DNA of 64,000 nucleotides from Euglena gracilis. Its lineage: Eukaryota. Under the pieces are notes generated by a model. That model worked only from the letters and a program-made list of their open reading frames with translations, had not been told where the DNA came from and made no database searches. The translations under genes and the position numbers were made by a program. The stretch lies in NCBI GenBank assembly GCA_039621445.1, contig CP154954.1:46169847-46233846 (forward strand), in the 5' to 3' direction. Shown here piece by piece: positions 16,776 through 44,700 of this stretch; positions within the stretch are counted from its first letter, which is position 1, and the number at the start of each line of letters is the position of its first letter.

Positions 16776-17380
16776 AGGGAATTGGACCTTTATTCTGGGA
16801 AACATTCAGTGGAAAATTGGTTGCAGGAAAAACGTTATGAGGCGATTTCAGTGGACATCAACCCAGGTTTTCACCCAACCCATCCCGTGGACTTTCCTAC
16901 CGTGGGAGTATCGAGCATACCCCCCTGGAAACTTTCAGGTCATAACGGCATGTGTGCCTTGCACGGGGTATAGCCGTGCTAAGACGGTGGGAGAAAGAAG
17001 TTTGGAGTGGCAGACCAACTTGTGACAATAACTTTGGAAATCGTGGAATGTTTTCAGCCCAAATTATGGTGGATTGAAAATCCCCGAACGGGACTTTTGC
17101 CAAAAAGGCATTGTGTGCAACACTTGAATTTTATCGATGTGGATTATTGTCAACGTTCTGACTGGGGATACCAAAAACCCACTCGGATTTGGGGGAATGA
17201 AAATTTGTTGAGTTTGAAAACAAACTTTGTGATGGGAAAAACCTGCCCGCATTTGATTGTGAGGGAAGGGGGTGGTTTGGTTCACAAAGAACAGTTTGGA
17301 GGAAACGGAATGAGGGTGAGCATTCAACAAAATGGGGGCCACCTGAAAAATTAGTTGAGTACCTTCTTTCGGCCCTTGAT
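16776..17380 (+). pseudogene. C5-cytosine DNA methyltransferase domain in element A, copy 1 (frameshifted)
   Basis: Motif I LDLYSG, II SVDIN, IV VPCTGYS (catalytic PC), VI WWIENP and VIII-like DYCQ...YQKPTRIW. Confidence 0.85.
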
Positions 17381-17409
17381 TTTAAGAAGAAAAGATTTTC
17401 CTTTAAGTG

Positions 17410-17790
17410 TGAGGCTTATGCCGTTCGAAACTCATTTGTGCACATGATCGAGGAGAATTTTCAAATAAGGGCCGAGAGAGGTGGATTTTTTTGCTTCTAC
17501 CCAAAATTCTCAGTGCACATCATGTTTGACCGAGAAGGGAAATGCTTTGGCGGTACCATGGGGAGGGGTGGGGCACGGTTTGGTTGAACCCCTCCTTGGT
17601 CATTATGGCCAAAGGTGGCAAAGAAATTGCGATTGCATCTTGCGTGATTGGAGCAAAGTTTGGGTAAGGTAATTTATCGGGAGGCATCAAAAAGTTTTAT
17701 TTTCCACCCGGAAGCAAGCTTTTTGAGGTGGATTGGAAACGAATGTGGGGTGTTAGGTAGGGAGTTTGGGCCTTGTTGATAGAGGGTAAT
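17410..17790 (+). pseudogene. Dam-like N6-adenine DNA methyltransferase domain in element A, copy 1 (frameshifted)
   Basis: EAYAV...DFFAS..NS...NAL..PW; WLNPPW is restored by removing one C from the run at about 17589-17592; followed by DW...LFE...VRW-like motifs. Confidence 0.75.
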
Positions 17791-23190: not shown

Positions 23191-23795
23191 AGGGAATTGG
23201 ACCTTTATTCTGGGAAACATTCAGTGAAAAATTGGTTGCAGGAAAAGCGTTATGAGGCGATTTCAGTGGACATCAACCCAGGTTTTCTCCCAACCCATCC
23301 CGTGGACATTCCTACCGTGGGAGTATCGAGCATACCCCCCTGGAAACTTTCAGGTCATAACGGCATGTGTGCCTTGCACGGGGTATAGCCGTGCTAAGAC
23401 GGTGGGAGAAAGAAGTTTGGAGTGGCAGACCAACTTGTGACAATAACTTTGGAAATCGTGGAATGTTTTCAGCCCAAATTATGGTGGATTGAAAATCCCC
23501 GAACGGGACTTTTGCCAAAAAGGCATTGTGTGCAACACTTGAATTTTATCGATGTGGATTATTGTCAATGTTCTGACTGGGGATACCAAAAACCCACTCG
23601 GATTTGGGTGAGTGAAAATCTGTTGAGTTTGAGAACAAACTTTGTGATGGGAAAAACCTGCCCGCATTTGATTGTGAGGGAAGGGGGTAGTTTGGTTCAC
23701 AAAGAACAGTGTGGAGGAAACGGAATGAGGGTGAGCATTCAACAAAAATGGGGGCCACCTGAAAAATTGGTTGAGTACCTTCTTTCGGCCCTTGA
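23191..23795 (+). pseudogene. C5-cytosine DNA methyltransferase domain in element A, copy 2
   Basis: RELDLYSGKHS, VPCTGYSRAKT, WWIENPRTG, DYCQCSDWGYQKPTRIW and motif X-like PPEKLVEYLL, spread across ORFs 22981-23388, 23252-23440 and 23422-24003. Confidence 0.85.
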
Positions 23796-23825
23796 TTTTA
23801 AGAAGAAAAGATTTTCCTTTAAGTG

Positions 23826-24200
23826 TGAGGCTTATGCCGTTCGAAACTCATTTGTGCACATGATCGAGGAGAATTTTCAAATAAGGGCCGAGAGAGGTGG
23901 ATGTTTTTGCTTCTACCCAAAATTCTCAGTGCACATCACGTTTGACCGAGAAGGGAAATGCTTTGGCGGTACCATGGGGAGGGGTGGGGCACGGTTTGGT
24001 TGAACCCCCCCTTTGTCATTATGGCCAAAGGTGGCAAAGAAATTGCGATTGCATCTTGCGTGATTGGAGCAAAGGTTGGGTAAGGTAATTTCTCGGGAGG
24101 CATCAAAAAGATTCATTTTCCACCCGGAAGCAAGCTTTTTGAGGTGGATTGGAAACCAATGGGGGGTGTTAGGTGGGCAGTTTGGGCCTTGTTGATAGAG
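23826..24200 (+). pseudogene. Dam-like N6-adenine DNA methyltransferase domain in element A, copy 2
   Basis: EAYAVRNSF...DVFASTQNS...GNALAVPW...VWLNPP...DWSKGW...GSKLFEV...GGVRWAVWALL, reading across frameshifts. Confidence 0.75.
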
Positions 24201-25505
24201 GGTAATAATTCCCCCGCTATCACCGGCAACCCCTAGAAACCTAGGGTAGTACACTTGAAGTTACGAATGGCTAAAAGGAGGTACCCACCCACAGGGATTG
24301 AGAAATTTTTGAAGGCCCGACGACTTTTGATTCGGACTAGGGTTGTTTTGGGGAACGGTGAGGAACAGAATATGGACATTTTGGCAGACACCGGTGCCGA
24401 GCCTAACCTCATTAGGCAAGGGTTAGTGAGTGAGCACCTGATGTATTCAGCCGAACACCCCTTGAGGTTTGAAACCACTAACGGTCAAGCCTTGAGTGGT
24501 GGGGGGAGGTGCACTAATGTGGTGATGAAGTTGCAAGGGGAGGTGAGTGACAACACACCACCCACATATTTTGAGTACGATGTGTAATTTGAAGAAGCCA
24601 ATATAAAAGTCGACGTAATTCTATCATACCGATGGCTTGTACGCACAAAAGTCGAAGTTTTTCCACACCACCGTGCCTTGGTAGTGGAGGAACCGGAATT
24701 GACATTTTTTTTCGGAGTGAGAGATCACAGGAGAAAACGGCAACGAAAAGTCCCTTGCACCCTACCCCAAGGAGGGGGTGTGACAAATTTGGAAAAGCTT
24801 GGCTTGCGCATTCTGATGGAGGGTTATTGATCAATGGGGAAAAGCCTTGGACGAAGATTCACTCAAAAATTTGGGCAGGAATTTGGAAACTGCAAGTGAC
24901 AACCCCCTACTGTTATTCACAAAATGATCACTGCAAGGGAGTGGAAGGGGAGCAAAGAAACGTAATCCGAAGAAGAAGACATAATAATAAAGCTAAGAGA
25001 CGAAATTTTTGGAAGGTAAGATGGAACCGTATTTCGGTCTAAGGAACAACCCGACCCACCCGTAAGAGGACCATATGGTTATGCATTATTACATTTGCAA
25101 GAAGGAGCGCGGCCTACCCGACAAAAACCATTTTTAATGCACGGGGAACGAAAAGAAGCTTTATAAAAAACCACTCAAGATTGGATCGATATGAAATTCA
25201 TCGAGCCAGCCACAACAAAATATTCAGAATGGCTCTCACAAACATTCCCGTGCCCAAAAAGTCAGCCGATTTCCCTTGGAGGCGGTTGTTGACACGAGGG
25301 GACCCAACAGCCAATGCAGTAGATGCAACCACCGTCTTCCTAAAATCGAAGACATCCTGGTGAAGCATGGTGCAAAACCAGACGTTCTCAATTTTGGATT
25401 TAAAACAAGACTTCCACCAACAGCCGCTTCACCCGGACAGCAGGCCTATAACTTGCTCCTTCACACCAAAGGGTCTTTACCAATGGAGGGTGAATGTAAT
25501 GGGGT

Positions 25506-25884
25506 TGTGGCATTGGACATTTCCCTACCTTTCAGATGAATTAGGCTTCGCCAGGTAATCTGCTCATTTTTTTTCTGTACAGTCAGACCTCATGAGTTGA
25601 TTGCTAGGCCCATGGGTCGTGGCCCCCTGGCGTGTATCAGGATCATGGGACTGACTGAAGGCTTGGAGATTTGAGTTTTGTGCTGTGGCTGAAGTTTGAA
25701 AAATTGAAGTAGAAGTTGCCTGCCAATGGGTGGGAATCCAAGGCCCACGGCGGAAGGCGAAGCAAAGGTATTGCAAAACCCAAGGCGAAGCCGAAGCCAG
25801 CCAAACAGGGGGCCCGGGGTCGGGCAGCTAAAAATGTATGAATTGCGAAGATAGCCCCCACCCAGGCGCCGCCCCTGTTTTACA
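25506..25884. mobile_element. Solo LTR (379 bp) inserted in the RT of element A
   Basis: Ends tgtggc...ttttaca; TSD gggt at 25502-25505 and 25885-25888; removal restores MGLTNA. A truncated copy sits at 19088-19317. Confidence 0.85.
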
Positions 25885-26173
25885 GGGTTAACTAACGCCT
25901 CACAACAAATACAACAAATGATGGATGACCGTTTAGCACCTGTAAGGGATATTGCCACCCCATACATTGATTACATTTTGGTAGGGTCCACTTTCGGGGA
26001 GGGGGAGGGTGTCCCCGAGGCAAACAAAAGGGTTTTGTGTAGGGTTTTGGATTTACTCACCGAGGAAATTTTTGTAGTGGACTCCAAAAAAGCGAAACTA
26101 TTCATCAAGGAAGTGGAATTTTGTTGCCAGATTTTTGGGGCATGGCACGCGTCGGCCGGCCCCCGGCAAATTA

Positions 26174-26722: not shown

Positions 26723-29700
26723 TACGCGCCATTGAAAAATGGGAGTGTACCTACAACCTTAACGGCATTAAGGGCTTTCCTCGGCTTCACAAATTATTAC
26801 AACACCTACATACACATGGATGCTCAAGTGGCGGCACCTTTGCAAGATAGTTTAAAGGTGTCTCAGGAGGAAGGCAAGAAAGGGAGCAAAAAAATGCGTT
26901 GAATTCGGGGAGGTTGCACACAAAGCATTTGAACAGTTAAAGAAGTGGTTGCTTTGCGGATTGATTCTTCAAAGGGTAGACCCCTTTGCTTTGAGGGTTG
27001 ATGCGAGTGGGTATGCCGTAGGACAAACTTTGGAACAACTCAAAGAAGGAAACGGTACGCCCACACCCCAAGAACTTTTTGGACAAGAAAACGGTGCTTG
27101 TTGCTTTTATGTCCCGAAAACTCACCGAGGGGCAAAGAAAATGGACCGCCCTGGACCTGGAGACATATGCCATAACTTTGGCACTCCAAAAATGCGAGAG
27201 CTGGATCGGTCCGCAACCCGTTTTGGTGTTGACCGATAACCAAAGTTTTGAGGCATGGGAAAAGGAAGCGCTCGACACCCCAAGTGGACCGGTGGGGAGG
27301 AGGGCACGATGGCACCAAATTTTCTCAAAATGCGATTTGAAAGTGGGGTACATTCCGGGGAAGGAAAACACTATCGCCCTCAGTTTAAGTCGGTGAGCGC
27401 ACCCCGCGTCGCACGCTTTAAGGGACATTAGTAAACACGGATCTGCTGAGGATAAGAAGGAAATGGAGGACCTCATAAGAGAGGAGAGTGAAGATGAGAA
27501 AAATTGCTTGTTGGTCAAATTCAAAAACCAGCCTATCGCTCGTAACATGTGGATAAGGGGGGGTAACCCGCAGTGGAAAAGAGGTGGCACCCAATTTTGT
27601 GGATGATGCATCAGGGAGGGGTACCGACAGTGTAGAAAGTCCGGGACGAATAAGCACCACCGAAGACGCTCACTCACAAGGGCCTAGGGATTTCTGGTTC
27701 GAAAAACGGTAAGAGGAGAGTTACCTTTTGGGATGGAGTGGACCCTGCGGGACATTTGGTGACTAGCCCAAAACTTCCGACTAATGAGTTACCAAGGGGG
27801 AGGGACGGAGAAGGTGTGGCCAACTCCAAGTGCAACCCCCAAGCTAACAAAATGAGTTTGGGAGAGAGATTGGGTAGTTGCGTGTACCGAATGATCATCT
27901 TGGAAGGAAATTTGGCTAGCAACTCAAAATGACGGTGAGTGGCCAAATGGTGTTAAATTTCACAAAGACCGTAAACAAATATGTTTTTTTTGAGGTGAGG
28001 TTGTGTGTTCCACTTTCTTTTCAAGAATTAATTGCGCAAGAAGTCCATGAATTCTTGGGACATGTTGGTCCCAAAAAAGTGTGGAATTTAATCATTTTGC
28101 GGTACGCATGGGCTGATGAAAAAAGGGCACTTGTTTTAAACGAAAGTTGTTCCAAAAATTGTGTCACATGCCAAGCAAGTTCACGGCGGGAGACTTTGAA
28201 GGGACACATATATTCAACACCCATTCCACCGGCACCCATGGTGAGTGTGGCCTTAGATCTTTTCAAAATGCCATTGGCAAAGTATAAGGGGGAAAAGTAC
28301 AATACCATGGCGGTGTGTGTTGAACGGCACTCCGGTTGGATCGTGGCCATACCGTTTTTAGAAAACGCTCAAACATTGGAGGGCTTTTCGGATTCGTTCA
28401 ATCATTTCTAGTGACCAAGGGAGTCATTTCGTGAACACATGGTGGCAAACCATGTACTCATTTTTTGGGACTTCGACAAGCTTTTTCTCAACGCTACCAC
28501 CACCAAGCCAACGGGCGGGTGGAAAGGGGGTCAACAAGTAATGCAGATTTTGACGAAACTCTTTGTGGACGGAAAAATGATTTGGGTTGAGGCTCTACCC
28601 CAAACTTTGGACAGGATTCTTGATGTGAAGGGGGAGGGTGGTTTTAGCCCATACCAAATTATGACCGGTAGGAAACGTCCTTTTGGGGGGGGTCCCTTAC
28701 CAAGCACCAAAAGAGTGCCAGGGTTCCCAACTATTTTTTCATCGAATGAAGCTAATCCATGAAACGGTGGCAAAGGGTTCAAACCATACCCATGAGGTCC
28801 AAGCTGAAAGGATTAACCGAGGTCGAAGGGAAATGGAACCATTAAAAATTGGAACCCATGTGTGGTACAAACGACCTGAGGGTTCGGGTGAAAAATCAAG
28901 TTAGAGGTGGATTGGTCCCGGTATTGTTAAAGCTCGGGAGGGGGAGAGGAGCTACGTTGTGGAAACCAAACTGGGTGTGCAAATTAGGACACACTGATGT
29001 TTTCTAAAGGAGCACAGGGAACCACCAGTTTTTGGCAAATGGGTTCCTCTTTATTTTTTCAAACGGACTGAAAAAGAGGATGAGGCAATGCCCGATGAGT
29101 TGGAGGTTGAGAAAATTTTGGCCCACCGTAGGAAGGAGGATTCGTGGAATTTCTCACCAAGTGGGTTGGTTGTGAGGAGGAGGAAGAAACCTGGGATAAT
29201 ATTGGAGTTTCATTCACCGTTCCAGGAATGAGTTTGTTCGGTATTGTGCCCACAAAAATCTGAAGGTGAATTTAATTTGGGGGCTTCAAAAAAATCTGTG
29301 AGCCAATTTCAATTGCGGCCCAATTTTGCTTTTCTTTCGGATTTGACGGGGTACGCTCAATTTTTAGAAACTCTGGGAGGTGGAACGGGGCCGAGTGCTG
29401 TGCGGCACCGGGGGGACGTGATTTCTCGCTCCTCCGCTCATTTCTATCCTCCATTTTGTATTTGCACGTTTTTTTTGTATGCGGGCAAATAAACACACAC
29501 ACACTTGATTTTTTTTGCGTGCGTACACATGCGTGCATTATTATTTTGCTTGTTTTGCCCGCGACACTTTATCTTGCTTATTCTTGTTGTTTAGAATTGG
29601 CCTCTTTATCACAGGAGTGAAGCGGGAAGCTCCAGCACTCCGCGAGCCCCGACCTAGTGATTATTGTAAATAGCCGCTGTGCATGTGTAAATACCAAAGT

Positions 29701-30732
29701 GCGGGCATTCCTTCAAAGTTAGGATGGAGGAAGGAAGGGGGAACGGAGGTTGGAAGGTTCCGTTTGTCAATTACCAACGTGACCACAATCAACTCCTCCA
29801 CCGCCGCCTTCACCTCCAACGCCGACACCAACACCACCGCCCCCATCAACCACGCCTTAGCACTCCAACTTCTACGCTCGACGACTTCAATAGCACACAA
29901 AACATCATGCCGGGTTGGGGGGTGAGGAATGGAGAAGGAGGATGGCGCGCCGAGTACAGGCGCGTGTTGGAAATGAGGGGTTCCGGGGAACTCAACGAAA
30001 TTTGTGGAAATTGTTCTCGTGAGACGAACCATTTTGTTGCCAACAATATTTGAGCAGGGGCGAAAGTACACAAAAACCTGCACGACGTGCGGATTTGAGG
30101 ATGATTGCACGCCATGGGGGGATGCGCTGACAAGGAAAGAGGTTGGGACACAAACAAATGTGTTGGAGATGGGGCCTTTGGACAACACACATCCCCCTCG
30201 AAGGTATGGACCCCCCATTTTTGGGAGCCGCGGTCGAGTGGGAGCCGGAGGCCACTCATCCCCCTCCCCCCCCACGACGTGCGGCTTCGCAAGCCCCCCT
30301 GAACTCCAACGACGGTTGAATGGACAAGCCCCCGGACCACGGCCACGACCACAACAAGAAGCCCCCATGAATGGAGGGTTTAACACAACGTGGTCCGAAG
30401 AATGAATAATTTTTGAAATCGGCCTATATGCCTTTTCTCTCACTCTCCTTTTTTTTCTCCCAACCCCAATGCATTTCTCTCTTCTTTTTTCTACAGCCCA
30501 CAAAAGCTACTTTTCTGCCAGAACGCAAGACCCGGGTGGCCGCGGCCCAGGCCCGACCCACATACAGTATGATTTGCCTCCCTACCCCCCACACGCCCAT
30601 GCGGCGGCCCCACCAGCCCAAGGGACGTCCGCGTATGTGCGTATGTGGTATATCAACCCCGTCCTGCCGCCTGCGCGGCCCAGGCACAAATGCCACCTCC
30701 CGCTCAAACGGTTCAGGCACAAATGCCATATC

Positions 30733-33700
30733 TGGACGTTTCAGAATATTCTTTTGTGTTCCTTGAAATCCTCGGATTTACAATTTTCTTGATATCCCAA
30801 TTGTCCCAAAGAGGTAAACACAAGCCAATGTGACATGAAACCAGAGCCAGCAGTCTGCGGGGGGGGGGGGGAGGGAAGTTCGAATTAGGAATACAAAAGT
30901 CAGTTCCGCAGTTGGTAAGGTAAGCGGTCAGCAAATAGTTCGCACACGACCCCCATGCCGGAGGACGCGGCGCCACAGGCACAGGACGAAACAGCATCAC
31001 ACCACAAAAAAAGGCGGCTTTACGGTTTTTCAAGCATTGATGAATGTGTTCCACACGAATTGTCCACAAAAGGTTCAGAACGACAAATGTCAACACAAAG
31101 AAAGGTAAAAGAGGTTACTTCCGACATTCACCGCGGTCCCTTCACTTCGTGGTTGGCTTGCATTTCAAAGGTAACACAAACCTGGGCGAAACTCCTTGCA
31201 TCAATGGCAGGTTTGCGACTGAAAGCCCTCAAAGGTTAGATGACAATCCACCATGGCGAGGCGGGTTGGTGTCTCCTGACCCGAAAAAACATCCAAAAAG
31301 GCCCCCTAAGGGGCTTGACTTTCTTCCCGCGTGTCTGAAAGCACGATCAAAACGTTTGGGGAGAGGCCAGGCTGTCTCTTGAGATGCCAATCCCCATTCA
31401 CATTCTTAAACGTCACAAAACATTCTGAGCGCCTGACGCATGCTCCCACCAAACCAAAAATTTCCATTCCCCTTGGTTCTTGTGCTCAAAATCTTGTAAA
31501 CATTGTAAAAACCCAATTGTGCTTGTTCTTCTTCTGACATCTGAAGGAGGGTCCCATCCCTGGTATGGCACGGGGGTGACACCTGCACTGGGTCTCCCAC
31601 AACCACATCACCGGTCAAAAGGTCTGGGTCTTCTTCCTAAAGACTTTCTTCATTCAAAGCAACCTCCCACTTTTTGCAAAAACCCAAAGAAACATAAATG
31701 ACCCCTCCCAAAGATGGACTGCCTGCAATTTGCACTGAATTGAACCTCAATTTGAGAACCCGAAAAGGTCCTTGCCAGGGGGGGAAAGCTTGGGCAATGA
31801 TTTTTTTGGCCATGTGAACCAAAACATAGACATCTTCTTGAATTTCTTGCTGGTACCCTCCCTTTGTTGGCACTCTCAAAATCTTTTTCCCTCAATTCTT
31901 TCAATCTCTGGGAAGCTCTTTCTTGAATTTCAATGTGGGTCAAAAGCCAGGAATGGGTGTCTGGGTTTGTCACCGGTTCTGGGGGTAATTCAAACCTCCA
32001 AGGTGGTCTTCCCAAAAACATTTCATGGTGTGACAGCATTGTTGTGGGGGGAACCTGTGAATTCATCAAAAATGTGCAATACGGAATCAATTGAACCCAA
32101 TTTTTGTCCTTGGAAGACAGACACAAAGCTCTCATACTCTGCAAAAACATTTTGTTGACATTTACAACCAAACCGTTTGATCTGTGGTTCCGGGGTAGCG
32201 AAAACGATAATTTCACGTCTAGAGCTTTTAACGCTGTCTGGTAAAAACCACTGGGCTGTCTGAATTGCACGTCGTTGTCAGACCTCACAACGGATGGTTT
32301 TCCAAAAACAGCAATCCACCTGTCTAAAATAAGCCTCAAATCACCTTCTCCGGTTACCGTTTTCTGTGTGGGGATGAATTGGCAAAAATGGGACAAATTA
32401 TCGACCAAAGTCAGCACATAGTCAATACCATTGTAGGGGTCCATTTGCATAAAATCCAAACACAAAACTTCACTGCTCACTGTTGACATCGGTAAAGAAC
32501 CCACCTTTCATCGGTCACTGGGGCGGTTTTGTTTTGAAAGGGTGCAAATTTCACAGGTCATCACAATGGCCTTGCAAATTTCCAACATGTCTTTCTTGGA
32601 CACCTTCGACTGAAATGGCTCAAAAAGAACAACAAAGTCCTTTCAGCACCCACATGGTTGCTTGCCTTGTGACATTCATCCAAACAAACCTTCAGCAAAT
32701 GAGATGGAACAACCAACGTTCCTTCGTAATACATTGCCTTGGCAGATCTGAACCAGAGCTCATTGTCAGTGAAACAGGGTTTTGAAACCTCCACATTTTC
32801 CCAAAATTCTTTCAGTTCTGAATTCAAATAATCCTTTTCTGACACTTGCACTCTGTGGGACACACTGAAAATCTTTTGCAAAAACAGGTCAAGCTGCACA
32901 TCCATTTTCTGAAGAGCGCTCCCTGCTTCTTCCTCAAAACGAATTTCAAATTTGCTCTCAAAATCAGCACGAGCCAAAACATCACACAATTCATTTTTGC
33001 AACCTGCCACAAGAACAACGTTCAGTTTGAACTGGTGCAAAAGCACATACATCCTTCTCAGCCTTTTTTTGGGGGGTTCACCCTTCAGAAAAGAGGTGGC
33101 TGCCTCATTGTCTGTCATCCACACAATTGGCAAATGTTGCAAAATCCTTGTTTGTGAAGCAGTGGTCAGCACACCACTCAAAATTTCCTTTACCCAGGTT
33201 GTGTATTTTTTTCTTGCCTCACTCCACTTCCAGTTGTAGTGGCCCAAGGGCACCAACCTCATTTCACTGGGGTAGTTGTTTTTCAGGGTCCCCTCCACTT
33301 TCACACAACTTGTTCGAAAATTTTCAGGAATTTGTGTTTGTTGGAGGGTTTGCCACTGAAACAAAGTAGGACCACTCTCAAATCCGAACTTTCAGTCACC
33401 AAAACAATCTCTCCTGAACTCCTGGGGGTACCTAAAACATCAAGGGATGATAATTTCCTTTTCAAAGCGTTCAAACAACTCTCCTCCTTTTCAGTCCACC
33501 TCCATTTCACCTTCTTTTCAGAAGATCTGTCAGTGGGGCTGAGTCAAAGGTAAAACCTTTCACGTGATTGTGATAAAAATTCATGGCCCCCAAAATTCGC
33601 CTCAAATCCCTTTGGTTCTGAACTCGAAAACTCAGAAATGGTTCAACGTTTCTTTTTTTTTCCTGCCACATTCCCCATCCCAACAAGAAACCCAAGTAGT

Positions 33701-36700
33701 CAATAGTATGATTCAGAAAAGAACATTTGCTCAATTTGATTCTCACGTGGTTCTTTCTGCAAACTTCAAACCACTTTCCCAAAAGATACAAATGGTCCTC
33801 CTCAGAATTCGCACCAACCCCTGTGTCATCGAAAAAAAGAAGCCAGATGTCCATCTTTCAAAATTTCTCTCACCCTCAAATCCGTTTTCCATTTGGAGGT
33901 TAGGATTTCCGTCAGCTCCTGAAAAATTTCTGGGGCATTCATCAACCCAAACATCATCCTCTTTGGACGAAAACACATTCCCTGAAGGAATGCAAAATGC
34001 AGAAAAATTTGCTGCTCTTTTTGTGATTGGGATTTGCCAATACCCACTCCTGATGTCCAGGGTACTTTTGAACCGACACTTGGCAAAACTTTCAATCAGG
34101 ATCCCCATGTTTGGCAAAAAACCTGCATGCGCTTTGCTTCTGGAATTCAATTTTCCATAATGAATGACCATCGTTCTGGTACTTGACCCTTTTTTGTCCA
34201 CCAAAAATGTGGGGCTGCACACCTGGTGGATTTCACCAACTGGGAATTGCTGACCCAACCCTGACTTTAGCAATTCTTCGCACTGAAGGTCAATTTCTTT
34301 TTCATCCTCCTGGGGCATGGGCCAACACTTTTGCCTTAGGGTTTCCCTTCCCATTCAGGCTTCAGCTCAATGTCCATCAAAACAGGCAGGGGGAAGACTC
34401 AGAAATTGTGGGCAGTGGTCCAAAAACATCATAAAATTTCACCAAAAGCTCATACAACCTGGGGTGGTTTCTGAATTTCTCAACTTCTTTCTCAAAATCT
34501 CCACTCAGATTCTCAGTAAACAATTTGTGGCTTTTTTCATCAGCCTTTTCTGGGCCTCCAAAGTCCAAACCTTTTCATGTAAAACTTGGGAAATGCTTTT
34601 GAGTTCATCCATCTTGACTGTTGCCTTGGGAGTCTTCACAGATTTCACAAATTGAACATCTTCCACAGGCTTGGACAGCTGGAAAAACATCATCTCCACA
34701 TCTCTTCTCACCTCCTGAAAAAGACGCAGCTCAGTTTCAATGTCCTTTGTCAATTCAGCCAAAAATTGATGTTTTCATGCTCACTCATTGGTTCAAACAC
34801 CACCACATTGTCCAACCATTCCTTCATCTTTTCTTCTGATTCTTTGGAGGGGACTTTCTCCACAGAGAAACTTGGACTTTCAAAAATTTGCCGGGCTGCA
34901 GGTGGATTGGCAGATTGTTGTGCATGCTGCTGGGGGGGAACATCAGGAAGATCTGGGAAATCAACTTGAATTTCATCATCCACTCTGGGGTACTTTCTGA
35001 TCTCACCTCTCAGTTCATGCAAAATCCAATTTCTTGAATCTTTCCTGAGCCAACTGACAGTTCTGGGGTGCAAAAGCTCAAAATCCACTTTGAATTGCAC
35101 TGTGTCCACCACACTCACAAAATTGTTCCACAGGGGGGAGGGCAGCACCTTTTTGCACCTGTCACCGACAAACAAGGGAACCCCACTTTAAATTTTCACC
35201 CTGGCCACCGGTACCCTTTCCAGCAGGGGGGGACCAGTACTGGTCCACCCAGTCTGAGCACACCAGGACCATTTTTGTTTCTTCAAGGCACAACTTGGTC
35301 ACCACTTTGCTTAGTTGGCTGAAGGGGGGGGTTTGCCCACAGAAACTTGGAAGCACCAATGTAACACAACAATTTTTCCTATGAATACCTGTAGGCCGAA
35401 TTCCCTTTCGTCATGTACAAAGACTGTGTGTGGTTCAGGTGGTTTGCAAAAAGATCAATGCAAAACTAACCCTCAGAAATCTTCAATTCTTCCAAAGCTT
35501 TTGACTTCACTGGCTTGACCAAAGGGTAGCTTTATGCCTTGAAAAGTCTGAAAATTATTTTGATGGTGTGGTCTCCATCATGGCTCTGAAGTAAAACCTC
35601 CTCACCGTCGATGATGGTTCTTGGGGGTCTGGTCAACAACCCCTCCAAAAACTCACTCTCTGTGAAGTCAGTCCCAAAAACTGCCTCAAAGGCACAAGTA
35701 TCCACCACAACAGCTTTCAGTTTCAAAATCTTGGACCCAAACTGCAAACACATCTCACACGTTCCCTGGGGAAAAATGTACTCCCCATTGCCGATCTGCA
35801 GGGGTACCGCAGCACTCCGGTCAATTTTATTCTCAGGAAAAAATTTTCTCAGAAACTGCAGTAATGGTGGCCCCTGTGTCCAAAATGGCTTGAACGTCCT
35901 TTCCATAAGCCTTCGCTGGCAAAAGATAAGTTTTACACACCATCTGGAGCAATTGCAAAGCATCAGCTTTTCTCTTTTTCGGGCTTGCACCCTGGGGGTA
36001 ACCTGGGTTTGAACTCCTTGGGGTTGAACGGAGGGGGTCCCTTTGCCTGCCCCCTTCTGGGCTGCCGCCTTCTTTTTCCCAAACTTTTTTTTACGAACAT
36101 CTGTCTTCATAATGCCCTTCTTTTGTGACAAAATCGACAGAAAATTGTGGCTCCAAATCGTAGGGCTGGGGTGTCATCAACTTTTCTTTCACCCTTGCCT
36201 TTGCCTTTTCCTTTGCCTTTTCCTTTTCCACCAGATTTTCCACAAAATCTGTCTGCCCTGATGTCTGCATACATTCTGGGGTGTAATTTTCTCAGCAAAA
36301 CCAGAAACATTTCCTGTTCACTCATGTCCTGGGGGCTCAACCTGGCCATCAAGTTTTCCAACTCGATGAAAAGTTTTTTGATGTCTTGTGGTTCAGGGTT
36401 CTGTGAAAGTGCTGGCAATTTCTCGATGGCAGATCTCAAAGTCATGTCATTTTCCAGTGTTGGGAACAATTTTGCAATTTCCAACAGCACTTTTTCAAAA
36501 TCATCATGCTCTTCCATCACCTTTTCAACCAGTTTTTTCACCTTGGGGGTGCAACACTCCAACAGCCAATCCTTTTTCTGGACATTTCCAAATGCAACAG
36601 CACCAGTTAACCTCAACCATTTGCCAAAATATTTCAAAAGCTCTGGCCAATTTGCACCATCAAACTCTGGCGATTTCACAGGTGGTAATCTTGAACTTTG

Positions 36701-37501
36701 GGTTGAACTTTAGCTGGGGTTGCTGGAGTTTGGTTCCACAATTTGCTTCAGAAATGTTTCAACCTGGGTGATGGGGTTCACAGGAGTAAAACCAGACTGA
36801 CTGCTGCTGGATGCTTTTATTTCCAATTCTTGCAACCTCCTTTCCAAATCTTCAATGGAATACATTTCTGCAGATCACTTTCAAAAAAACTCAACTACTG
36901 GCTCTGTAAACTGAGAGAAACTGGCCAACCCAAAAAGACAAACAAAGCTGAAGAAACCAGAACAGAAAACCAACCACTGGGTTCAGGACCACGTCAGCAA
37001 GATCATGAAGATCTTGCCCCCACCAGGTTCTTGTTCTGGACAGCAAGGTGAACAGCAGCACCAGCAGCTTCAATAGCCAAGTAACCAATACAACAACTGT
37101 TGAATTCTCCACTGAGAACTTGTTGACCACAGCTTGAATGACAACTTCCTGTTGAAGATGTTGTTCTGTACCAGCCACTCGGTTAACCTTGCCTTCAGGA
37201 AGACCAACTTCTGGAACTTCAACAACCAGTGAAACAATGATCAATCTCCTCGAAGACTTCTTGGACGATTGGAACAACAAACCTCTGCGACCAACTTTGG
37301 ATGTCTCACAATAATATTTTGTTTTCCTTGAAATCCTCGAATTCCCAATTTTCTAGATATCCCAATTGTCCCAAAGACGTGAACACAAGTCAATGTGACA
37401 TGAAACCACAGCCAGCAGTCTGAGGGGGGGGGGGGAAGTTCGAATTAGGAATACAAAAGTCAGTTCCGCAGTTGGTAAGGTAAGTCAGCAAATAGTTCGC
37501 A
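30733..37501 (-). mobile_element. Element B: full-length degenerate Ty3/Gypsy retrotransposon with order gag - PR - Dam-like MTase - RT - RH - IN (possible chromodomain)
   Basis: LTRs 30733-30944 and 37298-37501 (TG...CA). TSD atatc at 30728-30732 and 37502-37506. tRNA-type PBS tggtcgcagagg (37282-37293). gag SPEFDG..W, RT SPTFLVDKK / LDIRSGYWQI / FFDD, RNase H WMTDN, integrase LCLDF...VRSDND.QF. Confidence 0.92.
35105..35530 (-). pseudogene. Dam-like N6-adenine DNA methyltransferase domain between PR and RT of element B
   Basis: Manual minus-strand translation: SYPLVK...FCIDLFANHLNHTQSLYMTKGNSAYRYS*EKL...FLWANPP(fs)FSQLSKVVTKLCLEETKMVLVCSDWVDQYWSP(fs)LLE...GVPLF...PLWNNFVSVV. Confidence 0.8.
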
Positions 37502-39724
37502 ATATCCCCCTCAGTCACATATGCCATCCCCCTCTCAGGCACAAATGCCGCTCCCCTCTCAAGCACAACCGCCACTTTGTGTCCATCCGGCCCCTGTGCC
37601 AAGGGGAGCTTCATATGCGGCAAAGCCTCAGCAGGCATATCAAGTTTCAATGGAACAACAACCTCAGCAGGTACACCAGGTTGCAATGGAACAGCAACAA
37701 TATGTGAGGCAGGGATAAGCACCTCCAATGGAGCAGGCGCATTACGCCATGCCTGGTCCCTCACCTCCCATGCTGTACACACCACAGTATGTTACCTCTC
37801 AGCAACCACGGACACAACCCCAACCCCAACCTCAACCCCAACCTCAACCCGTACAGGGGTTGCGGCACCTTGTATTCGCCGAACCAACAGCAGCGAGAGA
37901 AATGGAAGTCAAAAGGGAAAGCATCCATACACATGAAACCAAAACGTCATATGCAAAGATAATGCCCTTTCCCAGAGGTGTGTCCTTAGAATGAAATAAG
38001 TTGGAAAAGGTGAGGAGGGTGGTTCCAGACCTCCCTTGGACTCTCCCCCATTCATTCAGGGAACATTCAGCAAGTACTCGGACTCCCACGACACAGGAAG
38101 GGGGAGGAAGGGACCAAGAGGACGAAGCACAAGAAGATGGTGAGGATGGCTGCCATTGCCTTGGACTTTAGCCCAAGGCCCTGTAGATAGATGGCCGCCA
38201 TGACCATTTTGAGGAGGGTCTCCACATTCCTGCCTTGAACCCTTTGAATTTGTCATATTTCCCTGCCATAGGGGTGGGGAATAGAAAAGGGATGGGTGGT
38301 CTGCCAGACCTGTCCTTCCATCTCCTGACAATGTTTCCTTGATGGAGGACTGTGATGGGTCCCCATGACCCAATGAGCCTTGCCCATGATGGCTTCTCCG
38401 TCGCTTTGCTCTGGCTAAAATTGTCCAGGGTCCATGGCGTCACAAACGTTTTGTTGAAAATGGGAAATTTCTGATGAACTGGGGGGCGAAAGGGGTGTGG
38501 CAGCCACAGACGGACCGGTTGGTCCTGCTCCATCATCATCAGGTTCCCCAGCGCCTGCAGCTCCTCGGTGTTTTCCAGCTTCAGCTGTCTGTTTTGAGCT
38601 TCCTTGTCCTCCCACTTTCTCTTGACAGCTTGATATTTTTTACAAAACAACTTTCATTGAAGTCCGTTGAGCACGTGCTTGATATTTGAGTTTCTTTTGT
38701 CTTTTTTATTTGCAGCACTCGTAGAGTTGAAAGTCTTTCTCCTTGAGGTCGAAGGGCAGAGTTAGGAATCAGCCAACTCCGGCAAAAAAAAGCAGTAAGA
38801 AGCACCCCCCGCACACGCAAAAACACACCAGAGCAGACACCTCGGGCTCCGCACTTTGCCCTTGTGCTCGCCGGCGGTGTTGTGTGATTGTTGCGCGTTG
38901 GGTTAGGACTCCCTGCTTAGTGCCTTTATTTCGCCAGAGTTTGCTGATTCCTAAATTGCCCTTCGACACCCAGAAGAAAGGAGAACACCTCAACTCAAGG
39001 CTACGAAGTCACCAAAGAAAGTTCAAGTCAAACTCAAATTCCAGAACGAGAAGATCCAGCAGAATATCAAACTTCAAAAAAAATTTCAACAACTGACTTC
39101 AATGAAAGATGACTTGGGGAAGAAATTGGTATTACGACGAGAAGCAGCGGTGGCCGCAGCAGCAACCTGGAGATGCGGACAAGCCGTGGCAAGCTGTGGT
39201 CACCCCTTCCCCACCCCTCTCAGAAATTTCACAACAGCCAAACCCCCCCAGTGACCACAGCCATTGGCAGACAGTGGTCAGGAAATCCAGAAAGGGGAAA
39301 GGACCAATGGCCCCAGGCCCTCCAAGGCCCAGGGCCCAGCCCAGACAGGACTTCCAGGGCCAAGTGCCCTTACAATTAAAAATACCAGCCAGAAATTCAG
39401 GCCAGAGGGCCAGAGCCCACATGGGCAGATGGAACCAAGGCCAAGGGGGAGAGCATCACAGAGGCCATGTTGGCGGCGGCCCCTGGGGTGTGGCGCCGGG
39501 CGGGGCCAAAAAAAGACCAACAGCGGAATCTTCCGCTTTGCGGAAGTTCCTAATTTAAGTTTATTGGACTGCCTCTCTGTAGGTGGTTCCGAGCCTGAAC
39601 ACTTCATCCTATCAAGCTGGCAAAGTGTTGTGCATTCAAATATCAAAGGAAGAAGGGAAAAGACACCCCAAAGAGACACCCAGAAAACTGAAGTGTTCAT
39701 CAACCAAACTACCAGAAGACCAGA

Positions 39725-40597
39725 ATGCCAGAGTCAGAGTACCAGAATGCCAAGGCCAGGAGGATGACTGTCAGTTGGAGGCCGGAAGAAAATCACTCGG
39801 AAGTGCAGGAAGCGACAGACTGGAGCTGGAGCAGATGGAGTGTCCGACTTCCAGAAGAAGGATGGAGATCTGCATTGACAGTGTGGGATGGCCAAGAAGA
39901 AGAAGAAGAATCAAGGAGTCCAGCTCCAAGCTATGAAGGTGCAGCTGAAGAACCGGAAGTGCCATTGCAGCCATTCAGGAGGAGAAATGTGGTGATGGAG
40001 AACCGACCAGATCCAGGAGAACCAGAATCAGGACCAGCCACAGATGAGGAGTACTACGAGGTGGAAGAGCCAGAGACCCAGCCAAGACCAAGTGGAAGGG
40101 GAAGAAGAATCAAGAGGCAGTACATCTCCGAGGAGTACGCTGTGAGCTGGGAATTTATCGACCTGATCCTGGAAAAGTTCAACATTCGGAAGGAAAGAGT
40201 GCAAGAAGCATTTGCATCATGGGAAAATGCAAGATTCCCCAAGTTCTGGACGAAGGAAGACAATGCATTTGGGAAGACATGGACAAGAGAAAAGATATGG
40301 GCCAATCCACCGTGGACGCTGATGAATCAAGTCATCCTCAAGATCATCGCGGACCAGGTGCAGGAGATGGTGCTGATTGCACCAGAGTGGCGCACAACAA
40401 CATGGTGGCCAGTGCTGCAGAAGATGACAGTGAAGTTCATCATCTTCGAGGAAGGAACCCGGTTCTTCGAGATCTGGGACCAGCAGGCGGGCCAGATGCA
40501 GCCGACTGGGCCATTGCGTTGGCCAGTCCGGGCGTGCTTGGTCCAGTACCGAAGATTCCGAGGAAGAGACCCTGAAGGGCATGCCCCCAGGAGATGA
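39725..40597 (+). CDS. Dam-like (phage/DIRS-type) DNA N6-adenine methyltransferase with an acidic N-terminal region, intact ORF
   Basis: 290 aa: EEYAV...EAFASWENARFPKFWTKEDNAFGKTW...IWANPPW...VLIAPEW...WWPVL...GTRFFE...PLRWPVRACLV. A basic GRGRRIKR patch precedes the domain. Confidence 0.85.
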   Translation: MPESEYQNAKARRMTVSWRPEENHSEVQEATDWSWSRWSVRLPEEGWRSALTVWDGQEEEEESRSPAPSYEGAAEEPEVPLQPFRRRNVVMENRPDPGEPESGPATDEEYYEVEEPETQPRPSGRGRRIKRQYISEEYAVSWEFIDLILEKFNIRKERVQEAFASWENARFPKFWTKEDNAFGKTWTREKIWANPPWTLMNQVILKIIADQVQEMVLIAPEWRTTTWWPVLQKMTVKFIIFEEGTRFFEIWDQQAGQMQPTGPLRWPVRACLVQYRRFRGRDPEGHAPRR

Positions 40598-40712: not shown

Positions 40713-41272
40713 GGCGGTGTAGACCGAGTGTTGCCTGCCATCCCCCTCCCAGCCTAATCCCCTCCTCGGCCAGTATCCAAGATCCCTGATCAGAAAAGGA
40801 TGGAAATCATCATGATTTCAATTGTGCACGTATTGGCTCGGCACAGAAAGAATGACTGAAAAATTCCAGGTGTTGGTTGTCGATTGTCGATGGATGCTCT
40901 GGGAGGTTCGACGGCCCGTCACTCCTGATGGGGGGGGGGTGCTCTGGGCGGTTCGGCTGCCCGTCGCCGAAAATGAATCGTTGGGTTGGTTGGAGTGTGG
41001 TGGTGTGGACCCAAGGGTTGCCTGCCCCCCAATTTCAATTCAGTGGAATTCGATCAGATCTGCAGAATGGTTGGCATAGAGATGGCGGTGTAGACCTGCG
41101 GGTTGCCTGCCCCGTGTATTCTGTTCGATGTGAATTGGAAGCAGATTTGCATGAATCACAGGTGTGTGTGGCGGTGTGAACACGATGTTACCCGCCCCCA
41201 CCTCGATGAAGGAATTGAGGCCCTGGGATCTTGATTTCGAGAGTGGCGGTGTGAACTCCTATGTTACCTGCC
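40713..41272 (+). repeat. Five copies of a 27-28 nt bulged hairpin GGYGGTGTRRAC-N5-6-GTTRCCYGCC with unique spacers
   Basis: Copies start at 40713, 40999, 41084, 41170 and 41245; loops are cgagt, ccaagg, ctgcgg, acgat and tcctat. Confidence 0.8.
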
Positions 41273-41413
41273 CCCCATTCATCATTCACTATGTGGACAT
41301 TGAGCGGACCCTGGATTGCGATTCTAATCCCCAGACTCAGAATTTGCTGTACGTTACTTCCTTCCCCCCCCCAAAAAAAACCCCAGCCACACCCCGGCAA
41401 GGAAAAGAAAACG

Positions 41414-41725
41414 GCCTCGGGCCCACGGGGGCCGAGGCCCCCCCCAGGGGGAAACCCCCCAGGGGGGCCCAAAAAAACCCCAGGCCTCGGGCCCACGGGG
41501 GCCGAGGCCCCCCCCCCCCAGGGGGAAACCCCCCCGGGGGGTCCCAAAGGGCCCCCCCGGGGGGTCCCAAAGGGCCCCCCCCCCCACCCAGGGGGAAACC
41601 TCCCCAGGGGGGCCCAAAAAAACCCAGGCCACGGGCCCACGGGGGCCGAAGCCCCCCCCCCCCAGGGCGGGCCAAAAAAACCCAGGCCTCGGGCCCACGG
41701 GAGCCGAGGCCCCCCCCCCCCCCCG
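41414..41725 (+). repeat. GC-rich tandem repeat (ggcctcgggcccacgggggccgagg units) in the 3' internal region of element C
   Basis: Four to five degenerate units, each self-complementary (cctcgg...ccgagg). Confidence 0.75.
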
Positions 41726-44700
41726 AAGCGGACAGCTTCGGGGGGACCAAAAAGAACCCGAACACTTCTCCGGGGCCGCCTCAAAAATTGCCGAAGGCGG
41801 TACGCAAGCGGTCCGGGAGGGGAGTGTTGGCGGCGGCCCCTGGGGTGTGGCGCCGGGCGGGGCCAAAAAAAGACCAACAGCGGAATCTTCCGCTTTGCGG
41901 AAGTTCCTAATTTAAGTTTATTGGACTGCCTCTCTGTAGGTAGTTCCAAGCCTGAACACTTCATCCTATCAAACTGGCAAAGTGTTGTGCATTCAAATAT
42001 CAAAGGAAGAAGGGAAAAGACACCCCAAAGAGACACCCAGAAAACTGCCATGGCGGCCAGTATTTCAAGTCAACCCCCACTGGGAGAGGTCATCCAAAAG
42101 GTCTCCCAAAAATTTCTTTTCAAAAAGTCTTTTCCACATTCCCCACAAAGGGGCAGGGTCAATGCCCCCCAAGATTTCAATTGGGCATGGAAGCCAGGGA
42201 CAGAGAAAGATGCCCAAGACCCAAGGGGGGTCAAGACCATTCAACAAGGGCAGGAGACCCTTTCAAAGCAGGGCCATGGCGGCCAATATCTGCTGGGCCA
42301 CGACGGCATTCCCCAGGCCATGGAGGCCACACACCAGGGCCATGGCGGCCATTTATTTTCAAGCCCGCTGGGCTCATTATGCACAGGCCACTGGGGCCAG
42401 AAGCTAAGGGGCAGCCCCACAGGGGCTCTTTATATAAATCAGCAGCCCCAGGAGGAAGAGGGAACCCCAGTTTCCCTCAAGGAGGATCAGGTGGAAGGGG
42501 GAGAACCCCTAAAAGCATTTACACTTCTTCATTCCAAATTGAATTTGTCAAGGGGGGCACCATCAGAGGCTGCCCAAGAAGTTTGTGAGATTGGCCAGTG
42601 GAGGGGGGTGGAGGCTTTTGCAGCCCACTATCAACGACTTGGTGCCCAAGGTGCCCTAGAAAATGCCCTGGCCCCCCTAATTTCAGTGCAGAATCTGGCC
42701 TCACAAGGGCAAAGTGCGGAGCCCGAGGTGTCTCGTACTCCCTCGAGGAAAACCGACAAGGGAGGAAGGGACACCGAGGGCGAAGCACAAAGACCTTGCG
42801 AGCCCGACCCCCCCACCCGTAAAAGAAAATTCGTCTTCAAAAGCCCTCGGTCAGAGAGTGGGGGCCAGGGGGGGCAGAGGGGGGGGACCCCCCCAAGGGG
42901 AAAGAGAAAACGCCACAGCCGCCACGTCGGAGCCACATCGTCAGCCAACTCCGGCGAGGCGGCACTAAGCAGGGAGTCCTAACCCAACGCGCAACAATCA
43001 CACAGCACCGCCGGCGAGCAAGGCATGGCCTCGCAAGGTCTTTGTGCTTCGCCCTCGGTTTCCCTTCCTCCCTTGTCGGTTTTTCCTCGAGGGAGTACGA
43101 GAACAGCCGGCAAGGACAGCAGGACCTCACCATCTCGCAGTGCGGAGCCCGACTGGTCGTGCTTTCCCCACGCTGTCCCGCTTTTTGCCCATTGGAAAAA
43201 CGAAAATGGCTCAGAGTCCGAACCTCCGGTGCAAAAGAATTTCGATTCTTTGGAAACTCCTGTGATCTCCCAACTTGGGGGGTCAATTCAAAAATGCACT
43301 TCTCAAAACACCAGAAATGTTCGGGTGAACCCTGAAAATCGCGACATGCCAAATAAAGATCCCAAAAGTGAAACCAATCGAACAAAATTTCTGGAGACCT
43401 CAATCATTGCCCTTAAACGCCGCGGTGTAGCTTAAAAAAGCTACACGCAAGAGGATCTGAGAAAAAAAAAATGCAATTGAACTTTTTTGTTTCCTCAGAT
43501 GAGCGTTCCTTGGACGAGGGATGTCGTGGGTGCGGAACAAAAGTCTAACAGAGAAAATTTTCTTTGACAATTGGGGTGAAGGCATTCTTGAAGGATGTGG
43601 ACTGATGTACAACGGATTTTGGGGTCGAAATTGATGCCCCCACGCAAAAACGCCAACCAACCTCCCCAATCAATAATTGCCCTCGGGAGGGGGAATATTG
43701 TTCTCTAAGTCTGGAATATTTTTGAGGAGGTTTTCGAGCATCAGACAACATATGTCCCACATCCCTCCCCCAAATGATCCCATGGCAACAAGGCTGGTCA
43801 CTCCGATCAAAACAGCAAGGATAAATAAAAATCAAAAAAAAAACGAAGCCGAAAAGGTAAACAAGAAGGTTGGTTTGGCTATTTTGTGGTCAAAGATTGT
43901 CCGGTCATCGCGTGCGGTTGCCACCTTGGTTGTGTTGTTGGTCAGCTATGAGACAGTACAGCCTGCCATGGCGCTGCCAGGCACAGTATGGTGTTGCACA
44001 TGCGACCCTGCTCCGGCAAAGGTTGCACGGTGGCAGGGACAACGTGATAAGCTCACTCCAACAAACCACTAAACTCACAGTCCATAATGAAATGGGCATA
44101 TGAAAAGTGAAATTGGTCCACACTCCATTGTGAAATTGGCGAAACAGCACTTGTGTTTGGCAGCGCTAATTGCCCACTGCCATTTTTTTGGCATTTTTTC
44201 GATGGTTGGGGTCCGAGGGGTTTTGTGCATAATTCTCCGAGAATTCCCTGAAAGAAAAGAAAATTTGAGGGGTTCAAATATGCCCCAAATTTTGGGCAAT
44301 TTTGGATTGGGCATATTAAGTTTTAAGCGGTTGGGAATTGCCCCTTGGAACCAAAAATTTTGAGGGAAGACTGCAGTTAGGCGGTTCCCCCTTGCGAAAC
44401 AAATGCATCTGCAGAGAAGGGAAACTGTCCTCGGAATACAAGCAAAAAGCGTTCGGGCGGCTATCCGCCCGAAAGACGGATGGATCCGGACACACTTGTG
44501 TTGTGCGCGCTTGCCCCGGGTTGCTCTGGTTTATTTGGGCAGATTGTGGTGGGGAATGGAATAACGTTGGCGTTTGCGGGCGAGTCAGAGTTGGGAAGAC
44601 GCTGAAATTGCAAACAGTTCATTGGTGCCTATGGTGCCACAAGTGAACAACTTTGGCAAAAGGGGAAAGGTAGCTGAGCTGATGGTTATAGGGAGGCAGA

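Follow-up and report, generated by a model that had tools for sequence, protein, structure and literature searches.

The stretch of DNA analyzed here (64,000 nucleotides of Euglena gracilis, called the window below) carries on its minus strand element B, a Ty3/Gypsy long terminal repeat (LTR) retrotransposon. Between the protease and the reverse transcriptase (RT) of this element lies a broken coding stretch that resembles the Dam family of adenine methyltransferases (Pfam PF05869). We conclude that the stretch 35531-35098 is very probably a Dam-type domain and that it is integral to the pol region of an old, dead, chromodomain-bearing copy of the DAM-LTR type, a class of retrotransposons defined in May 2026 by Fernandez-Moreno et al. 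(bioRxiv 10.64898/2026.05.21.726589; a preprint). The features of element B, listed in the order of reading on the minus strand, and one open reading frame (ORF) used for comparison are as follows.

30733-37501, minus strand: element B, a Ty3/Gypsy LTR retrotransposon of about 6.8 kb, with LTRs, a target duplication and coding regions from gag to integrase.
37502-37506, minus strand: target-site duplication GATAT on the 5' side, sequence read directly.
37298-37501, minus strand: 5' LTR of 204 nt, starting with TG and ending with CCA.
37282-37293, minus strand: putative primer-binding site TGGTCGCAGAGG, 4 nt past the 5' LTR, with a TGG start.
36110-36874, minus strand: gag, with a single in-frame stop at 36712-36710.
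35535-36132, minus strand: aspartic protease, with DTG at 35880-35872 and a frameshift split near 35849-35836.
35098-35531, minus strand: Dam-type (PF05869-like) methyltransferase domain, between protease and RT.
34990-35097, minus strand: two helices that extend the Dam fold at its C terminus, with the motif ELDPK...K.SKNW..DL..EM..YPR.
34770-34989, minus strand: variable Pro/Glu-rich linker, to which residues 294-385 of the relative P0156 give no alignment and which is predicted to be disordered in a relative.
34420-34769, minus strand: conserved helical pre-RT segment, in two frames, ending in LL..Y/F.DVF.
33507-34405, minus strand: RT, in at least three frames, with colinear relatives.
32564-33391, minus strand: RNase H plus the beginning of the zinc-binding region of the integrase (Pfam RT_RNaseH E = 8.1e-5, under the cut-off).
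31653-32651, minus strand: DDE integrase (Pfam rve E = 8.4e-6, 26.4 bits; the cut-off of 32.6 is not reached).
31440-31555, minus strand: chromodomain remnant after the integrase, split by a frameshift.
30733-30944, minus strand: 3' LTR of 212 nt.
30728-30732, minus strand: target-site duplication GATAT on the 3' side, the identical 5 bases abutting the 3' LTR.
39692-40597, plus strand: intact orphan Dam ORF with an NPPW motif, outside element B, matching Pfam Dam.

A preliminary description of the window had proposed a cryptic Dam-like domain at 35105..35530, between the protease and RT of element B, and the present analysis bears this out. The peptides that it gave are all found on the minus strand, but they are spread over three frames. 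Frame 1 reads IDLFANHLN...NSAYRYS, a TAG stop and EKLLCYIGASKFLWANPP (35459-35325); after a one-base shift, frame 2 reads FSQLSKVV...VCSDWVDQYWSP (35323-35228); and frame 3 reads LLERVPVARVKI, a TAA stop and SGVPLF... (35226 onward). The stops and homopolymer frameshifts said to disrupt the reading frame were located as four stops and two shifts. One stop, TAA at 35534-35532, falls exactly on the border between protease and Dam domain. The breaks inside the domain comprise three stops, namely, TAG at 35468-35466, TAG at 35381-35379 (in place of a Trp that 90% or more of 119 aligned sequences share) and TAA at 35190-35188, and two one-base frameshifts, one in a run of 8 G (plus strand, 35324-35331) and one in a run of 7 G (35225-35231). 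The domain was also said to continue in frame from the protease across one stop; the frame is indeed the same, but two stops intervene (35534-35532 and 35468-35466).

The nearby ORF 39692-40597 is a clear member of the family, with a Pfam PF05869 score of 41.4 bits (cut-off, 28.1 bits; E = 1.5e-10). An exhaustive phmmer search with it yielded 1264 relatives at E <= 1e-3, of which 148 had E <= 1e-10; when 74 of the 150 listed relatives were scanned, 60 of the 74 matched Pfam Dam at E <= 1e-5, and 55 reached the cut-off. A 150-position profile was built from the 101 domain-covering hits of ORF 39692-40594, plus that ORF, and was searched against the 2462 stop-to-stop six-frame segments of the window. 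Besides the ORF at 39692-40597, the best match was fragment 35410-35165 of element B (E = 1.7e-8, profile positions 73-105), and two further fragments of the element were colinear with it, 35465-35382 (E = 0.032, positions 37-60) and 35378-35286 (E = 0.83, positions 66-79). The stretch read through with X at the five internal breaks scored 60.4 bits (E = 2.3e-17) and covered positions 17 to 147 of 150; the aligned span, 35528-35098, is close to the extent first proposed. The reversed sequence and 500 shuffles gave at most 5.6 bits against the same profile. The X-bridged read-through was also 54% identical to the relative P0156 (1684 aa) over 186 aa (E = 1.6e-59) and 48% identical to P0094. The two checks suggested in the preliminary description, a frameshift-tolerant profile search and an alignment to intact relatives, were thus both positive. 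The description had named a lack of likeness to N6-methyltransferase profiles or to the nearby Dam ORF as the outcome that would speak against the domain; the score against the ORF-seeded profile is the opposite result. With 26 to 28% identity, taken via relatives, the domain of element B and ORF 39692-40597 are distant members of one family.

We then consider the proteins related to element B. A search with its RT ORF returned 17 longer proteins, up to 75% identical, among which five have a full Dam-type domain (100 to 111 bits with the 150-position profile) and one starts inside the domain. A search with the Dam-to-RT region of the relative P0159 returned 14 proteins. All 16 of the family polyproteins then collected contain the Dam domain. 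Judged by Pfam coordinates, the order is protease-Dam-RT in 13 of them, each in a single ORF (P0156 is counted here although its protease has no Pfam call), and RNase H-Dam-integrase in three (P0176, P0177 and P0178). For example, P0159 has the protease at residues 4-90, Dam at about 127-275, RVT_1 at 559-729, RNase H, rve at 1134-1231 and Chromo at 1446-1479, and P0168 has the protease at 402-488, Dam at 522-673 and RVT_1 at 946-1124.

Two results weigh against the presence of a Dam-type domain. Pfam Dam has no match on the stop-free fragments of element B (82 and 28 aa), and only 4 of 17 family proteins (P0094, P0169, P0176 and P0177) reach the Pfam Dam cut-off of 28.1 bits; 11 of the 17 score 20 to 27.8 bits, and 2 have no match. 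Together with the direct tblastn comparison of ORF 39692-40597 with the element B stretch, which gave only E = 0.13, the unmatched fragments could be taken to mean that chance or sequence composition accounts for the resemblance to Dam. This explanation is refuted by the score against the independent profile, by the shuffles and by the match to the intact relative, and we give it practically no credence.

A different possibility is that the stretch does derive from Dam and is a fragment of a DIRS-like element or of an orphan Dam gene nested into element B. The preprint notes possible nested insertions and chimeric models in Euglena, and an orphan Dam ORF lies only 4 kb away. However, the stretch is in the frame of the protease, and polyproteins encoded in a single ORF on unrelated contigs are colinear with it, most of them having the order protease-Dam-RT. 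The polyproteins P0156, P0159 and P0164 can be followed along the window from 36859 to 31440, switching frames, and for this reason we regard the Dam domain as integral to pol rather than as a nested fragment. In addition, no repeats or target duplication flanking the Dam stretch were found inside element B, the identity to the neighboring orphan ORF is low, as given above, and no tyrosine recombinase was seen among the window ORFs in Pfam scans. Nesting is therefore very unlikely.

Comparison among the relatives points to some mobility of the module itself. The Dam domains of P0159 and of P0176 to P0178 are 39 to 43% identical, whereas no more than 23 to 25% identity is seen in RT, RNase H and integrase; conversely, P0173 and P0159 are 44% identical in their protease-Dam-RT backbone and only 32% in the Dam region. 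Because the identities of Dam are incongruent with those of the backbone, the sequences suggest that the Dam module has been exchanged as a cassette between distant Gypsy backbones and between slots.

The preliminary description had called element B complete. This holds for its structure and not for its coding capacity, which stops and frameshifts have destroyed. Its LTRs (37298-37501 versus 30733-30944) are 89.2% identical across 212 columns in a blastn alignment, with a Kimura two-parameter distance of 0.077 over 204 ungapped columns. The sequence TGGTCGCAGAGG is a putative primer-binding site by its position and TGG start, without a tRNA match. In the gag region, residues 9-218 of P0164 align to 36859-36245 at 39.5% identity, and the only Pfam match is a weak one to Ty3_capsid (E = 0.2). 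The protease aligns to residues 324-417 and 357-586 of P0164 and to the protease region of P0159, P0160 and P0165; no Pfam protease domain is called on the copy of element B, although such domains are called in relatives. RVT_1 is matched on 33507-33857 (Pfam E = 1.2e-7). Residues 1015-1252 of P0156 align to the RNase H stretch at 54% identity, and the integrase stretch is covered by residues 1240-1637 of P0156 and 1088-1341 of P0159. The chromodomain remnant is recognized by tblastn with the C terminus of P0156 (E = 4.4e-5) and with P0172 (E = 7.4e-4). Pfam Chromo has no match on the ORFs of element B itself and is found at or above the cut-off in the relatives P0159, P0168 and P0172. Reading frames are split within each of the protease, linker, RT, RNase H, integrase and chromodomain. 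Given the LTRs, the GATAT duplication, the colinearity from gag to integrase and the chromodomain remnant, element B is a structurally complete element of the chromovirus type, but it is dead. Both of its flanks (37507-37620 and 30640-30727) consist of a GGCATTTGTGCCTGA-type short repeat, which indicates that its insertion site lay in an array of such repeats. Neither blastn nor tblastn found a further copy of the element in the 64-kb window.

Sequencing reads provided a view of other copies of the family. In two DNA runs, X1 and X2, 2723 and 2019 contig pieces, respectively, fell on 34300-36200 at 90 to 99% likeness; element B thus belongs to a high-copy family, which was large and recently alive. 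Summed depth over these contigs, which does not measure copy number, showed that the base forming the stop at 35380 is another letter in 213497 of 214452 (X1) and 78020 of 78167 (X2), and at the stops 35534, 35468 and 35189 nearly all of the summed depth likewise carries another letter. At the four stop positions, nearly all other copies thus read a sense codon for the family residue (Glu, Gln, Trp and Ser). The extra base at 35226 is missing from 221431 of 294030 (X1) and 82252 of 100171 (X2) of the depth. The extra base at 35324 is missing from only 3378 of 199071 (X1) and 14285 of 88690 (X2), yet it is missing from 7 of 8 RNA reads of run X24. Since most of the depth differs from element B, the four stops and one of the two shifts are confined to this copy or a small number of copies. 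On 34300-36200, the RNA reads numbered 48 (X24) and 9 (X21), from about 5 to 6% of each run; most are only 90 to 95% alike, and they therefore stem from other, related copies.

An alignment of 119 sequences, which includes distant ones, revealed the residues under the strongest conservation. With numbering according to the P0159 fragment, the columns kept in at least 90% of the sequences are Y36, D60, F62, W85, W96, N98, P99, P100, K110, P123, W125 and W165. Element B retains 10 of the 12; the TAG stop takes the place of W85, and Ser that of P123. The signature of the family reads [VI]D[LMVT]FANH, NSAxxYxW, LWANPPFSQL and P[ND]WxxxYW. Both D-x-F-A and NPPF are kept in element B, where LWANPPF can be read across the frameshift at 35324-35331. 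As read from these sequences, the Asn-Pro-Pro-aromatic motif of the element B family is the canonical NPPF.

The preliminary description had also pointed to about 700 nt of unassigned, partly helical coding sequence before RT. This interval is real and conserved in the family, as judged by the mapping of relatives, the alignment and a structural model of P0159. Some 680 nt between the Dam domain and RT of element B have no Pfam family, and Pfam scans of the linker ORFs gave noise only. A word search for longer proteins matching the 145-aa ORF after the Dam domain found none. The helical pre-RT segment is covered by residues 385-512 of P0156 and 452-487 of P0159. It has no family in Pfam, and the atlas gave only unnamed or retrotransposon-like clusters for it. 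It ends in LL..F.DVF, which we take to be the motif that usually precedes Gypsy RTs.

The AlphaFold model was made for residues 100-570 of the relative P0159, with alignment A2 (119 rows), and not for the element B copy. Its confidence (predicted local distance difference test, pLDDT) is 94 to 98 across the Dam domain and two extra C-terminal helices (fragment residues 31-215); residues 186-209 of the fragment are helical, with a pLDDT of about 97, and are packed against the Dam domain. The linker (residues 220-310) falls below 50, and helices at 312-334, 340-347 and 360-383 follow with a pLDDT of about 76 to 84 before RT begins. When the domain model was compared with the PDB by Foldseek, PCIF1/CAPAM came first (E = 2.4e-5) and KsgA next, and E. 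coli Dam ranked 46th. In an exhaustive structural search, the top matches were PCIF1 (PDB 6irw and 6irx; Z = 9.0, 130 residues, root-mean-square deviation of 3.2 A), Mcbe1 (7.8) and KsgA (7.6), followed by E. coli Dam (7.2), T4 Dam (7.1), DpnM (6.3) and TaqI (6.1), where differences in Z of less than 1 to 2 count as ties. All matches are class I S-adenosylmethionine (SAM) methyltransferases, mostly of the adenine N6 type, and the model thus predicts a class I SAM-methyltransferase fold of the adenine-N6 type for the Dam domain of the relative, with middling Z-scores. PCIF1, too, relies on an NPPF motif. Among the matches listed in the structural search, none was a solved member of PF05869. When the A2 profile was compared with PDB sequences, full-length rows dominated it, so that chromodomains and integrases were its only matches and it was uninformative on Dam.

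Whereas the copy of element B is unable to make a Dam-carrying protein, a function can be proposed for intact copies. They would make a SAM-dependent N6-adenine methyltransferase as part of Pol, in which a disordered tether would hold the Dam domain next to RT. The Dam domain would mark the element's own new cDNA, or the RNA-DNA intermediate, with N6-methyladenine (6mA). This mark would be maintained by the host AMT1, as the preprint proposes, and new insertions would enter transcriptionally permissive chromatin. We adopt this DNA-marking mechanism, which is that of the preprint, tentatively and at somewhat less than an even chance. Several results weigh against it. The Z-scores of the P0159 model are middling, and a Z below 8 may reflect a common arrangement only; the top solved match, PCIF1, is an RNA methyltransferase and not a DNA methyltransferase; and when DAMs of DIRS elements, DAM-LTRs and adintoviruses were expressed in dam-deficient E. 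coli, the preprint saw no rise in 6mA.

The last two of these results would also fit a real methyltransferase with an RNA substrate, which might be the element's genomic RNA, an adenosine next to the cap or the RNA strand in the hybrid. PCIF1, which ranks first in both structural searches, is a cap-specific adenosine N6-methyltransferase, and the rRNA adenine methylases KsgA, Erm and DIMT1 come next, above E. coli and T4 Dam. These ranks are, however, separated by differences that count as ties, the sequence homology is to the phage and bacterial DNA Dam family PF05869, and an enrichment of DNA 6mA on DAM-LTR insertions is reported. We consider an RNA substrate unlikely. The position of the module bears on a related proposal. 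The Dam slot is mostly beside RT or RNase H, being before RT in element B and after RNase H in P0176 to P0178 and in DIRS-type relatives. The PCIF1-like fold, the negative E. coli assay and this slot would fit an RT-tethered adenine methyltransferase acting on RNA or on an RNA-DNA intermediate and not on double-stranded DNA, and this too is improbable in our judgment.

The negative result in the heterologous host could also mean that catalysis has been lost or was never present, so that the domain would serve as a binding module (for SAM, for nucleic acid or for the recruitment of AMT1) or as a structural spacer in Pol. According to the preprint, eukaryotic DAMs do not have the N-terminal catalytic and target-recognition parts of T4 and E. 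coli Dam, in line with such a role. However, the columns of D-x-F-A and N-P-P-aromatic are conserved in 90% or more of the 119 sequences, the pattern expected for an active site under selection. A noncatalytic module seems rather unlikely.

Other features of the window deserve brief description. A 223-nt repeat (39468-39690) immediately precedes the orphan ORF 39692-40597, and a 99% identical copy of this repeat lies at 41825-42047. A public protein of 170 aa, P0001, is 95% identical to the ORF. No RT, integrase, recombinase or other retrotransposon protein was mapped within several kb of it. At 41255-42982 on the plus strand, a 575-aa Pro/Gly-rich low-complexity frame arises from a G/C-rich tandem repeat of about 60 to 75 nt (41419-41760); Pfam gave no family for this frame. 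An exon-like ORF at 1502-1891 on the minus strand matches PsaD (photosystem I subunit II; E = 2.8e-13), and its atlas neighbors are all PsaD, indicating that the host is a photosynthetic eukaryote. A spliced-leader motif gave 0 matches.

A different Gypsy-type element is present on the plus strand as two 3.25-kb copies (16084-19317 and 22501-25731) that are 95.6% identical. Its Dam-like domain (17201-17757 and 23398-24233) lies upstream of the protease-like region (17905-18336 and 24321-24752) and not after it, and its RT is at 18553-19089 and 25029-26139. The motif reads NPPW across a homopolymer shift. Relatives of this second family occur in both orders, Dam then RVP in P0125 and protease then Dam in P0032, P0068 and P0143. 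A conserved coding stretch immediately upstream of this second Dam (16764-17306 and 23191-23886, plus strand) matches P0068 (residues 365-503), P0075 (residues 258-396) and P0100, and the matching part of P0075 has a sub-threshold Pfam match to the C-5 DNA_methylase family (E = 0.005). No Pfam match to a cytosine methyltransferase was found on the window ORFs upstream of this Dam (16.5-17.3 kb). The stretch may be a cytosine-methyltransferase remnant like that of the EpiLTRs, elements with DAM, DNMT and a chromodomain, and the EpiLTRs may include the second Gypsy family (16-19 kb and 22.5-25.7 kb). Further downstream, 26856-28408 on the plus strand contains an RNase H ORF (E = 7.6e-13) and an integrase zinc-binding ORF (E = 3.8e-6) and probably makes up the 3' half of the Gypsy copy that starts near 22.5 kb.

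The general picture is little changed by these results, since retrotransposons with their own adenine methyltransferase were already reported in May 2026. What they contribute is the anatomy of the interval from protease to RT, which consists of a folded Dam domain with two extra helices, a disordered tether of about 90 aa and a helical pre-RT segment. The exchange of the Dam module between Gypsy backbones and slots, as suggested by the identities above, goes slightly beyond the text of the preprint. Moreover, the high-copy family of element B, with its canonical NPPF, is a good source of intact protein for an activity test.

The kind of element that B represents is already in print as DAM-LTR retrotransposons. 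In the preprint, chromodomain LTR elements make up 30.9% of the DAM-bearing transposable elements, a mixed Euglena group of DAM-LTR and DIRS elements and the EpiLTRs are described, more 6mA is found on DAM-LTR insertions, E. gracilis included, and the expression of LTR elements in E. gracilis is low. The word "protease" has 0 occurrences in its main text, so the protease-Dam-RT slot is at most shown in its figures. As far as the accessible portions of the sources go, a full-text literature search combining adenine methyltransferase, DIRS and LTR returned only the preprint and de Mendoza et al. 2018 (PMC5890265), and one combining "methyltransferase domain" with DIRS, Gypsy and protease returned two genome papers.

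Compared with the DAM-LTR elements, element B has the same Ty3/Gypsy LTR backbone (LTRs, target duplication, gag, protease, RT, RNase H and DDE integrase), a PF05869-type domain with an Asn-Pro-Pro-aromatic motif inside pol, a chromodomain, a high copy number and a Euglena host; the difference is that this copy is dead. Its chromodomain at the C terminus of the integrase (remnant at 31555-31440) is shared with the chromoviruses. The EpiLTRs share the host and the same modular logic, but no cytosine-methyltransferase module was seen in element B by Pfam or mapping. Elements of the DIRS1 type have the same Dam-type domain and motifs, and the relatives P0145, P0146, P0101 and P0102 have RT, RNase H and Dam; element B differs from them in having LTRs, a 5-bp duplication, a protease, an rve integrase and Dam before RT. 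With the phage and bacterial Dam proteins of PF05869, the domain shares sequence homology and the order D-x-F-A ... NPP-aromatic, whereas it is embedded in a eukaryotic polyprotein, its family scores mostly just under the cut-off (20 to 28 bits) and a helix pair has been added at its C terminus. The likeness seen to PCIF1/CAPAM, at 15 to 16% identity, is one of structure, and PCIF1 has additional domains and acts on RNA as an enzyme of the host. Among these systems, element B is thus placed with the DAM-LTR retrotransposons.

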